Of a stretch of DNA of 64,000 bases, positions 36,333-48,122 are shown piece by piece. The translations under genes were made by a program, and so were the position numbers. Position 1 is the first letter of the stretch. Every line of letters starts with the position of its first letter. The stretch is from a phage. The notes under the pieces are model-generated. The model worked only from the letters and a program-made list of their open reading frames with translations. It did no database searches and was not told the origin of the DNA. The stretch lies in the sequence record PZ452583.1. One strand, given 5' to 3'.

Positions 36333-36694
36333 TACAAACTCTCAGTAAAGGTACGAGCAATAACGTCGCGCTGCTGTTCCGGAGTCAGAGAGTTAAAGCG
36401 AACTGCATAACCTGATACACGGATGGTCAGCTGCGGATATTTTTCCGGATGCTTAACTGCATCTTCCAGAGTTTCACGACGCAGAACGTTAACGTTCAGG
36501 TGTTGACCACCTTCAATTTTAACTGTAGGCTGTTGCTCAATTTCAATTTCACGGGCATGCAAACCATAGAAAATTTCTGGGTCTACAAAAGAGTCCTCTT
36601 TAAAGGTTTTAGAGACAATAATTCGTGCTTGAATACCATCTTCAAAATAAATAGTACCTTTATGTGTGCCTTCAAGAATTTGATATGCTTTCAT
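36332..36694 (-). CDS. Autonomous glycyl-radical cofactor-like protein (GrcA/YfiD-like)
   Basis: ORF track 120 aa; glycyl-radical signature RVSGYAVRF near the C-terminus; size and layout as for a PFL C-terminal domain homolog. Confidence 0.75.
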
Positions 36695-36701
36695 ATAAAC
36701 C

Positions 36702-37031
36702 TCAATTAGAAAATAAATTTATCCAAGATTGTTCTTTAATTAAAAATGGCTCAGAATCATATGCCATTAAACTTTGGGTGATTAGTCCTTTAAAAGGCCC
36801 ATCAATAAATTCCATGGTAAAATATGGAATTTTATTCATTAGCCGTGCATTAGGAGCAGTACACAAAACTCTGCATCCTTTGAATACGCCTTTTTGTAAT
36901 TTGTATTGCTTGGGATAAAATTCGCTCAAAATGTTATTATTTGCTAAAATTTCAAAATGATTCACCAATTTATTTTTAATAGTTTTTGGCGAAAAATAAA
37001 GATATTCGAAAAGCTGAGTGTCTGTCATCAT
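36702..37031 (-). CDS. Hypothetical protein
   Basis: Track ORF 36702..37082; supported start ATG 37031..37029 ([13 protein letters not shown]). Confidence 0.5.
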
Positions 37032-37624
37032 TGCATTCCGATTACGAAAAACTGTGGACGAGTAATACCACCAATGCAACATTTACTATTGCAGCAGTGT
37101 TGCACAGTTTCAATATGAATATCGTAAATTTTATCCATATCAGGAGATTTAACAGGCTCATCAATTATATACAAAATTCGTGAAAGCGATAAACCTCTGA
37201 ACTTGCTACCTCTATTACCAATAAAACTGCGCACAGAATCAGTAAATAAACGAAAACGTATATCATCATTAGAATAACGCGAAAATTCCTTTTTAATGTT
37301 ATTTGCAGAAATTTTAGCGTAAGCTGAAGTATTAGATAGAACAATAACTGTTCCGCCATCATACAGCCAATTAGCAGCAAAGTTAGTCACAGCAATTGAT
37401 TTACCGGATTGACGTCCACCATCTATACGAAGTGTACAGTACTGTTTAAGTAATTCTTCAAATGGCGGGATATATTCGTTTTTACAAATTTCTTCTACTC
37501 TAGCATCAGAATGGTGTGTAAAAGCATTCATCAGGGATAGATACGGGCCAGTTAAAAATGTTCTCATATTTTCTCTCTTAATTTTTGGGCCATTCCATGG
37601 CACATGAGTTGTCCATTCCTGCAT
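37028..37624 (-). CDS. Predicted P-loop NTPase
   Basis: ORF track 198 aa; Walker A-like GGRQSGKS; start ambiguous (ATG 37624 or 37567). Confidence 0.5.
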   Translation of the reverse strand: MQEWTTHVPWNGPKIKRENMRTFLTGPYLSLMNAFTHHSDARVEEICKNEYIPPFEELLKQYCTLRIDGGRQSGKSIAVTNFAANWLYDGGTVIVLSNTSAYAKISANNIKKEFSRYSNDDIRFRLFTDSVRSFIGNRGSKFRGLSLSRILYIIDEPVKSPDMDKIYDIHIETVQHCCNSKCCIGGITRPQFFVIGMQ

Positions 37625-37702
37625 TACCCATTACCGCGCTTTGGCTCGACCTTATCACAGGTTGGCGGGAATACCTCAAATGAGGTCCAGGCTGTTCCCA
37701 TA

Positions 37703-38176
37703 TTATTTGAACGATTTAACGTACTGAATAGAACCCTTACTATTCACAAAGGCAATTTTACCATTTTTATTATACATGGTAGCAGTACGCTGATAACCAT
37801 AGGTTTGTTTACCAGATTGATAACCAACTAATGCAAAATTATCTTCACCCATTTTATTCTGTTTAGCGCGAATGCGTTCATGACCATGTGCCATAAGAAC
37901 CTTAGCATCACCAGTTGCAATGGATCGACGAGTTTTTTCATCTTCAACTGTATTAACAAAGTCGTCAAATGAATCAAATTTAGCATGAGATTTATTATAC
38001 AGTTTTCCATCTACTGCATAATTATATCCTTGTACATCCATCTCAACTTCTGTACCATCATCCAATACAGCAGTGATTTTTTGACCTTTTTTAAATTTCA
38101 AAAGATCAGTAAAAGATTCAGCAATAATTTGAGAATTAATAGCTGCTTCAGTAATAAATTCTTGATATGTTTTCAT
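37703..38176 (-). CDS. Internal-protein-like (capsid-targeting sequence) protein
   Basis: ORF track 157 aa; N-terminus MKTYQEFITEA nearly identical to the T4 IPIII capsid-targeting sequence MKTYQEFIAE, with an I-T-E gp21-type cleavage motif; AAAGGAAA Shine-Dalgarno. Confidence 0.65.
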   Translation of the reverse strand: MKTYQEFITEAAINSQIIAESFTDLLKFKKGQKITAVLDDGTEVEMDVQGYNYAVDGKLYNKSHAKFDSFDDFVNTVEDEKTRRSIATGDAKVLMAHGHERIRAKQNKMGEDNFALVGYQSGKQTYGYQRTATMYNKNGKIAFVNSKGSIQYVKSFK

Positions 38177-38185
38177 GGGTTTCCT

Positions 38186-38602
38186 TTAAATGTAAATATT
38201 TTTACCGTAATACTTATACCAATGTGGTTTCATTAAAATTTTTTCATCAAGTCGTTGTTGACTCAATTTAATAGCTGATTTGCATGGATTATAATCATTT
38301 TTCCATTCTACTGGAATATCGCTGATGTCAGGAACTTCAGTATCTTTTATACTGAACCCGCGTTTTAAGCATTCCGTTATAATGTCTAATTGACGCTTTC
38401 GCAAAAATTCTAACTTATCGTAAAAGAACGTAACATGACCAGAACCTAAAATAAACTCGGAAGATATTTTAAAATCTTTAACGCGCTTACCGTTTGCCAC
38501 ATGCTTACGAACTATACCAAAAACACGCGGCAATTCACGGTATTCTGCGATTAAATGTTGATCAGCAAGTTCAGATACTAAAGTCAAATTAATACGAGTC
38601 AT
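38186..38602 (-). CDS. denV: Endonuclease V (pyrimidine-dimer DNA glycosylase)
   Basis: ORF track 138 aa; N-terminus [29 protein letters not shown] matches T4 endo V as recalled. Confidence 0.92.
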
Positions 38603-38627
38603 TTTATCCCTCCAATTAACTGTGAAT

Positions 38628-38657
38628 ATACTATCACAATTCTAGGAGAAAGTAAAC
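38628..38657 (-). promoter_or_regulatory. T4 early-promoter-like element upstream of denV
   Basis: Minus strand GTTTAC, 18-nt spacer, TAGTAT, then GGAGGG and the denV ATG. Confidence 0.45.
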
Positions 38658-38661
38658 AACT

Positions 38662-39630
<969 letters not shown>

Positions 39631-39634
<4 letters not shown>

Positions 39635-40119
39635 TTTAATTTCCTGCATTCAGTGATAAAGTTATTTAAATTTTGAGTATATTTCTTTTCATCAAAAATC
39701 TTTTGCTGTCTGCGTAACCGCCATGGCATTTCAATGAACACGCACCATATCCCAGATAATATTGCTGCTGTAAAAATATTAACAAGTATGGTTAAAAGAA
39801 TCCAATCTCCTATTCTGTCCATTGGATTTTTTATAAAAAAGTAAAATACGAATGATGTCACAGGAAGACTAATAATATACCACAGAATCATAATTTTATC
39901 TGTGAACCAATCAGCGTTCGTTAACTTAGCGCGACCATTATGAATACATACGAACTTATCATCTGTTATAGTAGATGGCTTAGCTGCTTGATATCCCATT
40001 CTAAACTCCCTAATTAACATTTTTTTCATATCTTCGGAACAGCCACTCCAGTCAACTCTATCAACTGAAATGCCATCATCCCCATCATCTAAATCATACC
40101 AGCGAGTTTTTAAAATCAT
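39631..40119 (-). CDS. Hypothetical membrane protein
   Basis: ORF track 162 aa; two or more hydrophobic helices. Confidence 0.55.
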
Positions 40120-44273: not shown

Positions 44274-44349
44274 TGGTCGAGGCAGTAGGGATCGAACCTA
44301 CGACCTAGGACTTAGAAGGTCCTTGCTCTTCCTTCTGAGCTATGCCCCG
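44274..44349 (-). tRNA. tRNA-Arg (anticodon UCU)
   Basis: Hand-folded cloverleaf from reverse complement: T-arm GUAGG-UUCGAUC-CCUAC, anticodon loop CUUCUAA, encoded CCA. Confidence 0.8.
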
Positions 44350-44353
44350 TAAT

Positions 44354-44429
44354 TGGGGTGACCGATGGGAGTCGAACCCATGACTACGAGAATCACAATC
44401 TCGAGTTCTACCAACTGAACTACGGCCAC
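44354..44429 (-). tRNA. tRNA-His (anticodon GUG)
   Basis: Hand-folded: acceptor GUGGCCG/CGGUCAC, D-stem GUUC/GAAC, anticodon stem CGAGA/UCUCG with loop UUGUGAU, T-arm AUGGG-UUCGACU-CCCAU, discriminator C, CCA; no encoded G-1. Confidence 0.65.
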
Positions 44430-44543
44430 ATTAATATCTACTCCAACAATCATGATGTCTTCACACGAAATTAAGAGAAGAGTGATCAGTTAAACCCTTA
44501 TAATCGCGTCAAGTAGATATTAATGTGACAGTTGTCACAAATT

Positions 44544-44618
44544 TGGCGGACGTGATAGGATTCGAACCTATAACCAATCGCTTAACAGGCGATCGCTCTG
44601 CCATTGAGCTACACATCC
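44544..44618 (-). tRNA. tRNA-Asn (anticodon GUU)
   Basis: Hand-folded: acceptor GGAUGUG/CACGUCC, anticodon stem AUCGC/GCGAU with loop CUGUUAA, T-loop UUCGAAU, CCA. Confidence 0.7.
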
Positions 44619-44622
44619 AAAT

Positions 44623-44709
44623 TGGTGGGGAGTGGTGGAGTCGAACCACCCGAGTCGCAATGACAATGAATTTACAGTCCACACCGCTACCTCTACGGGA
44701 TAACTCCCC
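44623..44709 (-). tRNA. tRNA-Tyr (anticodon GUA), type II with long variable arm
   Basis: Hand-folded: acceptor GGGGAGU/ACUCCCC, anticodon loop CUGUAAA, variable arm hairpin, T-arm GGUGG-UUCGACU-CCACC, CCA; anticodon stem has two G-U pairs. Confidence 0.6.
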
Positions 44710-44721
44710 TAATTCATAATT

Positions 44722-44796
44722 TGGTGGCCCTGGGTGGAATTGAACCACCATCTGGCGATTATGAGTCGCTTGCTTGAACCTTCCAGCTACAGGGCC
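44722..44796 (-). tRNA. tRNA with CAU anticodon (Ile by analogy to T4 tRNA-Ile; Met by anticodon alone)
   Basis: Hand-folded: acceptor GGCCCUG/CAGGGCC, anticodon loop CUCAUAA, T-arm GGUGG-UUCAAUU-CCACC, CCA. Confidence 0.7.
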
Positions 44797-44797
44797 T

Positions 44798-44873
44798 TGG
44801 TGCTGATTGACGGAATCGAACCGCCGACCTTCTCATTACAAGTGAGTTGCTCTACCTACTGAGCTAAATCAGC
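44798..44873 (-). tRNA. tRNA-Thr (anticodon UGU)
   Basis: Hand-folded: acceptor GCUGAUU/AAUCAGC, D-stem GCUC/GAGC, anticodon loop CUUGUAA, T-loop UUCGAUU, CCA. Confidence 0.75.
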
Positions 44874-44878
44874 AAAAC

Positions 44879-44968
44879 TGGCGGAGGCGATAGGATTTGA
44901 ACCTATGAGTCGCCGGAGCGACTGCCGGTTTTCAAGACCGGTGCATTAAACCACTCTGCCACGCCTCC
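44879..44968 (-). tRNA. tRNA-Ser (anticodon UGA), type II
   Basis: Hand-folded: acceptor GGAGGCG/CGCCUCC, anticodon stem CCGGU/ACCGG with loop CUUGAAA, long variable arm, T-loop UUCAAAU, CCA. Confidence 0.75.
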
Positions 44969-44970
44969 AG

Positions 44971-45044
44971 TCTCCATACAAGGATTTGAACCTTGGACCT
45001 CCTGATCCCAAATCAGGCGCTCTACCAAACTGAGCTACACGGAG
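44971..45044 (-). tRNA. tRNA-Pro (anticodon UGG), CCA not encoded
   Basis: Hand-folded: anticodon stem CCUGA/UCAGG with loop UUUGGGA, T-arm CAAGG-UUCAAAU-CCUUG; 3' end abuts tRNA-Ser (Pro-Ser dimeric arrangement as in T4). Confidence 0.75.
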
Positions 45045-45054
45045 TAAATTAAAT

Positions 45055-45128
<74 letters not shown>

Positions 45129-45133
45129 AAATT

Positions 45134-45220
45134 TGGTGCGAGAAGTGGGACTCGAACCCACAAGGAAATCATTCCGCAGCATTTTAAGTGCTGTGCCTTT
45201 ACCAATTTGACCATTCTCGC
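45134..45220 (-). tRNA. tRNA-Leu (anticodon UAA), type II
   Basis: Hand-folded: acceptor GCGAGAA/UUCUCGC, anticodon stem CAGCA/UGCUG with loop CUUAAAA, long variable arm, T-arm GUGGG-UUCGAGU-CCCAC, CCA. Confidence 0.75.
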
Positions 45221-45226
45221 GTTATA

Positions 45227-45835
45227 TTATTTATTACGTGAAAAAGACTGTTCTATCAATTCTGGACACTTTCGTTCTATCCATTTTCTAGCTTTTTGTG
45301 GGCTTATACCTATTATTTTAGCAGCTTTACTAACCCATCCAAATTTAGAATAATCGATTTTAACTAATTCTTCGTAAATTTCATTAGTTAAAATCTTTTC
45401 ATTAATATTTACCAGTAAATGATATAATTTGTTATCATTAGCAATTTTAATGAATCTTTTATAGTTTCCGCCTTTACTTAAACCTAATGAAGTAATTGCA
45501 GATGATATAGTAGCCGAATTTAATAATGCGTTTAAAATTTCTTCATCACTAACATTATAACGCTTTTTATTATTTTTAATATTTTTACCAGCAAAAGTAT
45601 CAGTTTGCGAATGACAGTTTGGACATAATAATCTTAAATTTGATTTAAGATGATTTTTGTTATTTCCATCAATATGGTCTAATTGCAGAACAATATGCTT
45701 ATTTTGCCATTTTGAAATTTTACAAATTGCACACTCATATGGAAAAATATTTTCTTTTATTATTTTGTCTTTCAGCTTTCCTGTACTAAAATTTGGATGT
45801 TTTCCTTCAAAAATTTCAGCTAATTTAGTATCCAT
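45227..45835 (-). CDS. HNH homing-endonuclease-like protein (free-standing, adjacent to tRNA array)
   Basis: Track ORF 45227..45859 (TTG); supported start ATG 45835..45833 (MDTKLAEIF); HNH core LDHIDGNNKNHLKSNLRLLCPNCH with paired Cys (CAIC...CPNC). Confidence 0.7.
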   Translation of the reverse strand: MDTKLAEIFEGKHPNFSTGKLKDKIIKENIFPYECAICKISKWQNKHIVLQLDHIDGNNKNHLKSNLRLLCPNCHSQTDTFAGKNIKNNKKRYNVSDEEILNALLNSATISSAITSLGLSKGGNYKRFIKIANDNKLYHLLVNINEKILTNEIYEELVKIDYSKFGWVSKAAKIIGISPQKARKWIERKCPELIEQSFSRNK

Positions 45836-45934
45836 AATATGATTCCCAATTATTAACAAAGGCTCTCAAATAAGAACCCTTGATGATAGAGGGTATTAAT
45901 CAGTGCGGTATGAGTTAATAATAACAAATAATTC

Positions 45935-47864: not shown

Positions 47865-48122
47865 TTATTTTAAATCTTCTAATCGTTTCTTCATCTTAGA
47901 ACCATTTTTAGCGATTTCTCCTGCGTCAGAGCATAATGCTAAAAGTGCTTTAACTTTAGTTTGGTCTCCTTTAAAAGACGAAGGATCGACTGCAGCAGCA
48001 AGTTCTTTAATACGAGAGAAAAGACGCTCAGCTTCAGCTAAAGCCATTCCAAGCTTTACTTCCATACCATGAGAAGATTCAGTGATAATAGTTTCTGTAG
48101 CAAACTCTTTATAAGTTTTCAT
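47865..48122 (-). CDS. Internal-protein-like (capsid-targeting sequence) protein at the T4 ipI position
   Basis: ORF track 85 aa; N-terminus MKTYKEFATETIITE fits the CTS pattern; immediately downstream (in transcription) of 57B as ipI is in T4. Confidence 0.6.
   Translation of the reverse strand: MKTYKEFATETIITESSHGMEVKLGMALAEAERLFSRIKELAAAVDPSSFKGDQTKVKALLALCSDAGEIAKNGSKMKKRLEDLK

Follow-up and report, generated by a model that had tools for sequence, protein, structure and literature searches.

The window is a stretch of phage DNA of 64,000 nucleotides (sequence record PZ452583.1). Table 1 lists the features found between nudE and vs.8, where every gene is encoded by the minus strand. The order of transcription is nudE, e, a 59-nt spacer, denV, a 9-nt gap, ip4, a spacer of ~135 nt and vs.8. 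In phage AndreasVesalius, the vs.8 homologue is annotated as a 540-nt CDS.

An original prediction, made from the letters of the window, held that the ORF at 37703..38176 starts MKTYQEFITEA, that this internal-protein-type ORF lies downstream of denV, and that about 59 bp separate denV and e. Our ORF calls agree (minus strand, 157 aa). The ORF follows denV after a gap of 9 nt, and the distance between denV and e measures exactly 59 nt. The prediction also placed ipII and ipIII between denV and e in T4. We checked whether T4 might instead share the order of the window. The annotated T4 record reads e-ipIII-ipII-denV-vs.8. Hence, the T4 order given in the prediction is right and the window differs from T4.

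Table 1. Features of the e-vs.8 locus and its flanks, in the order of transcription
Feature	Coordinates	Strand	Basis
nudE	39649..39194	-	Pfam NUDIX match
Exact T4 late-promoter motifs TATAAATA (two copies), upstream of e	39170..39190	-	Motif scan
e (T4 lysozyme), conserved left anchor of the variable cassette	38662..39156	-	Pfam Phage_lysozyme, E = 1.4e-13; 96.0% DNA identity to T4 e
e-denV spacer, exactly 59 nt	38603..38661	-	Between ORFs e and denV
denV (pyrimidine-dimer DNA glycosylase, endonuclease V), divergent allele	38186..38602	-	Pfam Pyr_excise PF03013, E = 2e-13
Internal-protein leader module AAAAATATTTACATTTAAAGGAAAC	38177..38201	-	denV 3' end and ip4 ribosome-binding site
ip4 (ipIV), internal head protein precursor, 157 aa, ATG start	37703..38176	-	Pfam DUF7412, phrog_3155
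ip4 capsid-targeting sequence (CTS), codons 1-10	38176..38147	-	MKTYQEFITE
GC-rich spacer, right anchor of the cassette	37568..37702	-	Alignment of 8 loci
vs.8 homologue, conserved right flank, start placed at conserved MRTFLTG	37028..37567	-	94.6% DNA identity to T4 vs.8; phrog_1488

The product of the ORF belongs to curated families. Residues 1-157 align with the 158-position Pfam profile PF24183 (DUF7412; E = 5.7e-96, 319.4 bits against a cut-off of 27), and the protein matches phrog_3155, "internal virion protein" (E = 6e-102, 339 bits). Nothing in NCBIfam scored above threshold. Proteins of T2, RB18 and RB33 match the ORF product at 100% identity, an RB51 protein labelled Ip4 at 99.4% and phage K3 Ip4 (UniProt Q38388) at 99%. 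One T2 record names the same gene ipIV ("IpIV internal head protein"). Judged by these matches, the gene is the already-named ip4 (ipIV), and not a relative of ipIII. The original description, an IPIII-type gene, holds for the 10-residue targeting peptide but not for the mature region. With BLASTP, residues 1-13 of Ip4 align with T4 IPIII and nothing significant follows. The alignment with T4 IPII is driven by the same targeting peptide; the mature part is at best marginally similar. A displaced ipIII, that is an IPIII orthologue, was ruled out by the lack of mature-region homology to T4 IPIII in the BLASTP comparison.

Across our phage collection, 291 records hold Ip4 at a protein identity of at least 99%. 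Homologues at 60-80% identity occur in a further 160 records, largely from Klebsiella phages. Identity in other genera is ~70%, and Ip4 is detectable also in distant T4-like phages. A profile search against 1.8 billion representative proteins returned only seven matches. The distant homologues among those seven have MNFxxFLNE/S at the N-terminus, which is the same targeting signal in another form. The expectation that genes of this kind are fast-evolving is not borne out for Ip4 itself, given the 291 near-identical copies; it is presence and position that vary.

The N-terminus of Ip4 is identical to MKTYQEFIAEA of T4 IPIII and IPII at 10 of 11 residues, and at 9 of 10 within the CTS alone. The near-exact match to the IPIII targeting sequence, as first noticed, is thereby confirmed. 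In a six-frame scan of all 64 kb for CTS-like peptides, two ORFs only were recovered: ip4 and 48122..47865. Both are at canonical internal-protein loci. Hence, the motif in ip4 is no chance match. The second ORF (47865..48122, minus strand, 85 aa) starts MKTYKEFATE/T and matches phrog_3499, "internal head protein". It immediately follows the 57B homologue, at the position of ipI in T4, and so occupies the second canonical Ip locus. Hence, at each of its two Ip loci the phage of the window encodes a non-T4 internal protein.

In T4 IPIII, Y4 and F7 are needed for targeting whilst I8 and E10 are needed for processing (PMC9026906). All four are retained in the CTS of Ip4. The prohead protease gp21 recognises the motif (L/I)-X-E (PMC9026906), and Ip4 has two candidate sites. 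The first, I8-T9-E10/A11 (ITE/A), fits the motif. The second is I18-A19-E20/S21 (IAE/S), in which E20 is nearly invariant across 15 family members. Propeptides of T4 internal proteins are 10-19 residues long (T4 review, PMC9026906). Given the second motif, with its nearly invariant E20, the propeptide of Ip4 may be 20 residues. The predicted mature protein is ~16.5 kDa, with a pI of 9.1 and 22 Lys+Arg, and is basic like IPII and IPIII. Ip4 has the marks of a CTS-bearing internal head protein: a CTS with Y4 and F7, a gp21 motif and a location in the Ip locus of the e-denV region. By analogy, Ip4 is probably packaged via its targeting sequence, trimmed by gp21 and injected with the DNA. Briefly, on the model of T4 work, MKTYQEFITE would bind the scaffolding core so that Ip4 enters the prohead. 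There gp21 would cut behind E10 and perhaps, in addition, behind the conserved E20, and the mature protein, which is basic, would then be injected along with the DNA.

We modelled Ip4 with AlphaFold. A run with 13 close homologues gave an unusable model (pLDDT 50). With three distant homologues from the profile search included, pLDDT rose to 83.8 and pTM was 0.78. The resulting model is a compact alpha/beta domain that begins after residues 1-20, which are poorly modelled (pLDDT ~45-54). Using Foldseek, we found no significant neighbour of the model in the PDB, and viral models in BFVD matched only Ip4 itself. A PDB sequence search returned nothing meaningful; the best match, with E = 5.8e-4, is an unrelated designed protein.

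Many independently sequenced phages share the 2.7 kb of the window around ip4, colinear and at 96-98% identity. AndreasVesalius, wV7 and teqhad are among the many phages with the order e-denV-ip4-vs.8. A direct e-denV junction, counted where at least 80% of the probe matched in one place, is present in 245 records. The denV-ip4 junction, counted also where an extra internal-protein gene intervenes, is present in 165 and the T4-type e-ipIII junction in 52. The count for a direct e-ip4 junction is confounded, and was not used, because the search joins pieces across the 417-nt denV insertion. T4 is a minority arrangement, and the layout of the window is the majority form among sequenced T4-like coliphages.

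Other layouts differ from that of the window by single insertions or deletions. Phages of the teqsoen type have an extra CTS gene, ipX, and read e-denV-ipX-ip4-vs.8. T2 and SHBML-50-1 lack denV (e-ip4-vs.8), fPS-65 lacks ip4 (e-denV-vs.8), and in T6 the whole block between regB and e is missing so that e directly adjoins regB. Gelderlandvirus Melville and a Jiaodavirus Klebsiella phage have e, then an Ip4 homologue, then another internal protein, with no denV. The ipX product of teqsoen (L002, 2694..3011) has 105 aa, starts MKTYQEFIAE/S and matches phrog_3966, a family annotated as of unknown function; the gene is found between denV and ip4 in many relatives. T2 is classically more UV-sensitive than T4. 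The lack of denV at the e-vs.8 locus of T2 fits this greater sensitivity.

The denV gene of the window is itself unlike that of T4. It has 78% protein and 72.5% DNA identity to T4 denV, whereas the flanking genes nudE, e, vs.8 and vs.7 have 95-98% DNA identity to their T4 counterparts. The identity profile is therefore mosaic. Residues T2, R3, R22, E23 and R26 are present and align with those of T4 DenV. In T4 endonuclease V, T2, R22, E23 and R26 (and R3) have a catalytic role. Only 55 of the 747 records with a denV match have the T4-type allele (at least 90% identity). The collection contains several denV allele classes, which relative to T4 are at ~77-80%, 90-95% and at least 99% identity. 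To judge from these identities, denV was not simply left in place but is a different allele from that of T4.

The alignments indicate that the e-to-vs.8 interval is a swapped cassette, with no local inversion of gene order. The original prediction had the locus reshuffled or replaced relative to T4. Replacement describes the content well, the mature ORF being unrelated to IPIII, but the gene was not merely moved or reshuffled. The idea of exchangeable payloads is sound: natural variants of the cassette at this site are numerous, among them those of AndreasVesalius, teqsoen, T4, T2, T6, SHBML-50-1 and fPS-65. In our view, the window very probably holds a common natural form of the variable e-vs.8 cassette of a Tequatrovirus, a T4-like coliphage, carrying the known CTS-bearing gene ip4. 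Both the gene and the layout are already known, as a named gene, as curated families and from hundreds of genomes.

An alternative, and the direction implied in the original prediction, is that the lineage of the window is derived. An e-ipIII-ipII-denV ancestor, like T4, would have rearranged so that the internal-protein gene moved past denV. The gene order does differ from that of the reference phage, and T4 contains repeated modules able to mediate such a rearrangement. However, Ip4 has no homology to IPIII or IPII beyond the targeting peptide, and the adjacent denV is a different allele, 72.5% identical. Moreover, the T4 arrangement accounts for some 52-55 records against 245 for the e-denV junction, and e and ip4 are adjacent in two other genera. 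We consider a derived window improbable. An assembly artefact, or an ORF that is a chance reading frame, has nothing in its favour and can be dismissed as next to impossible: it is refuted by the colinear 2.7 kb at 96-98% identity in many independently sequenced relatives, by full-length matches of the ORF to curated family models and by the counts of Ip4 and of the e-denV and denV-ip4 junctions.

The junctions of the cassette can be described base by base. The original prediction called the e-denV junction empty, apart from a promoter-like element. It is not empty: the spacer is a conserved module of hairpin, promoter and ribosome-binding site. The hairpin has two tiers (38651..38607, minus strand). 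In its outer stem, UUUCUCC pairs with the denV ribosome-binding site, GGAGGG (38613..38608). The folded spacer RNA has a free energy of -16.8 kcal/mol (z = -3.4). The sigma-70-like promoter comprises TTTACT (38656..38651), a 17-nt spacer, and TG followed by TAGTAT (38633..38628).

The first ~45 nt of the e-denV spacer are ~90% identical to the first half of the T4 e-ipIII spacer. With the e-ip4 spacer of SHBML-50-1, 48 of 49 nt are shared. The ipII-denV spacer of T4 has the same architecture and a different sequence. For T4 (record X04567), the depositors annotated stem-loops and overlapping potential -10 regions in all three spacers. The homologous position in Yersinia phage fPS-65 is annotated "predicted early promoter". 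Measured by the E. coli consensus, the promoter of the window scores 8/12. A generic promoter and terminator scan, which had a threshold of 9/12 and gave overall counts no higher than for shuffled sequence, did not report it. Hence, with a score below the scan threshold, the call draws on homology with the annotated T4 and fPS-65 elements. The "promoter-like element" of the original prediction gains from that homology but not from the generic scan. The promoter appears to be real but weak by generic criteria.

The second junction is the leader of ip4. Over 25 nt, AAAAATATTTACATTTAAAGGAAAC is identical to the leader of T4 ipII, and it differs by one base from the ip4 leader of SHBML-50-1, AAAATATTTACATTTAAAGGATAC. 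This leader encodes the last codons and stop of denV (NIYI*; AIYA* in T4 denV) as well as the ip4 ribosome-binding site. Within T4, the leader and CTS coding sequence of ipII and ipIII form a direct repeat of 74 nt, the two copies being 84% identical. Such a repeat is an obvious place for unequal crossing-over. Two leader/CTS repeats exactly bound the 334 bp by which the teqsoen type and the window type differ. On the right side, every variant regains homology at GGGAACA..CCTGGACCTCA, immediately 3' of the stop codon of the last gene.

In the proposed reading, the cassette would be built of short repeated modules. A promoter-bearing hairpin would stand after each gene, and a leader of ~25 nt with 30 nt of CTS coding sequence would precede each internal-protein gene. 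Recombination at these modules could then add, delete or swap units of the cassette. The window looks like the product of a denV ORF inserted into an e-ip4 spacer. Seemingly, the denV ORF alone entered a spacer of the kind found in T2 and SHBML-50-1, although the event may also have run the other way, with denV lost in T2-type phages. The left half of the former spacer would now drive denV. The right half would supply the last five codons and stop of denV, together with the ip4 ribosome-binding site.

Beyond ip4 is a GC-rich spacer of ~130-135 nt (minus strand), with a local GC content of 51% against ~33%. It is conserved in every cassette variant and follows the last gene, be it ip4 (window, T2 and SHBML-50-1) or denV (T4 and fPS-65). 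An alignment of 8 loci contains indels of 1, 6 and 7 nt. Hence, the spacer has no common reading frame. The T4 record treats it as the N-terminus of vs.8; conservation places the start at MRTFLTG (37567). Folding gave z = -0.2 and -1.4, so that a structured RNA in 37568..37702 is unsupported, and an Rfam scan of 36500..40000 assigned no family to the spacer. The same scan gave one sub-threshold snoRNA match, which we dismissed.

Two further observations concern the neighbourhood. The vs.8 homologue (37028..37624, minus strand) contains a P-loop-like GGRQSGKS and has a weak match to the terminase large subunit (phrog_2, E = 2.5e-6). Elsewhere in the window, a 210-aa ORF (45227..45859, minus strand) that contains the HNH-like motif CPNCH sits just upstream of 10 clustered tRNA genes (44274..45220). 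The ORF has the look of a homing-endonuclease-type gene.

The consensus of the T4 late promoter is well established. On the minus strand of 37600-39300, exact copies of TATAAATA were found only as a pair upstream of e, and T4 has the same pair in the same place. No exact late promoter precedes ip4. A one-mismatch TAAAAATA alone is found in its leader, as in that of T4 ipII. The ip4 gene lacks a separate promoter module and is probably co-transcribed with denV from the promoter in the e-denV spacer. Late in infection, read-through of e, denV and ip4 would start at the two TATAAATA promoters, which are the likely source of late transcripts through all three genes. If the genes of the cassette share promoters, gene order matters little, which would explain why shuffling is tolerated.

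What Ip4 does in the host can be considered in the light of its relatives by location. T4 Ip1 (IPI*) inhibits the type IV restriction enzyme GmrSD (PMC3012670, PMC9391042, PMC12373910). In 2025, Ip2 and Ip3 were each described to inhibit a different GmrSD variant (PMC12373910). Enzymes of this type attack glucosyl-hydroxymethylcytosine DNA. In the view of the authors, variants of the GmrSD family are the targets of every protein from the two Ip loci (PMC12373910). In the papers searched, no experiments on Ip4/IpIV were found, virion proteomics and injection assays included. No sequence or fold similarity of Ip4 to the inhibitors Ip1, Ip2 and Ip3 was detected, and its likeness to Ip2 and Ip3 is essentially the targeting peptide. 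Since there is no convincing sequence similarity and no structural relative, the argument for an anti-restriction role is wholly one of analogy. T2 has Ip4 and lacks Ip2 and Ip3. The likeliest reading, to which we give not quite an even chance, is that Ip4, like Ip1-3, is an injected anti-restriction protein that blocks one GmrSD-type variant.

Somewhat more tentatively, Ip4 could be an injected orphan-fold inhibitor of a defence still to be named. The target might be a modification-dependent nuclease, of the GmrSD/BrxU type or another, with a wide distribution in Enterobacteriaceae. Such an inhibitor would explain why Ip4 is conserved from Tequatrovirus to Jiaodavirus, Gelderlandvirus and distant phages, while T4 lacks it.

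Ip4 is unusually conserved for a counter-defence protein, and this conservation would also fit a structural or DNA-packing role. A further alternative casts Ip4 chiefly as a head protein, structural or DNA-associated, that contributes to the scaffolding core or neutralises DNA charge, and not as a dedicated anti-defence protein. The protein is basic (pI 9.1, 22 Lys+Arg). It is highly conserved in Tequatrovirus and present in other Tevenvirinae genera and distant relatives, unlike a typical arms-race protein. Furthermore, in IPIII mutants heads assemble more slowly and the burst is smaller (PMC9026906). However, ip4 is dispensable in nature, as T4, T6 and fPS-65 have no such gene. All three T4 internal proteins tested so far are specific GmrSD inhibitors (PMC12373910), and the model of Ip4 is a folded globular domain, not a disordered polycation. 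We regard a mainly structural role as unlikely, though it is the main rival to an anti-restriction role.

As a discovery, the locus matters little: the gene is named, its families are curated and the layout is the majority form. It is a reminder that T4 is unrepresentative of its genus at the e-vs.8 locus. The junctions neatly illustrate, on a small scale, how phages can shuffle accessory genes with expression intact by means of short repeated promoter and leader modules. Only two points are mildly new. One is the description of the junctions at base level. The other is that, of the internal proteins still lacking a known target, Ip4 is the most widespread, in a group where Ip1, Ip2 and Ip3 block restriction enzymes.

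Ip4 is proposed to follow the same delivery route as IPI* (Ip1), Ip2 and Ip3, being packaged by means of a targeting peptide and injected with the DNA. The genes occupy the same two accessory loci. The difference is that no sequence or structural similarity was detected in Ip4. At least 10 Ips have been reported among the T-even phages (PMC12373910, PMC3012670). With T4 ipIII and ipII, ip4 shares the 10-residue CTS, the gp21 motif, the leader with its ribosome-binding site, the e-to-vs.8 interval and a small, basic product. However, the mature sequences are unrelated and the position relative to denV is reversed. Each of the two T4 genes also has its own hairpin/promoter module upstream, whereas ip4 in the window begins only 9 nt after the denV stop.

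Ip4/IpIV of the T-even phages K3, T2 and RB51 is the same protein, with 99-100% identity over its full length and the same targeting peptide. In T2 and SHBML-50-1, ip4 is directly after e, rather than after denV as in the window, because denV is absent there; otherwise nothing substantial is different. Polymorphism of the internal-protein genes among T-even phages was reportedly described by Repoila et al. in 1994, in EMBO J 13:4181. The cassette of the window is the same phenomenon: many unrelated ORFs that share only the CTS replace each other at fixed loci.
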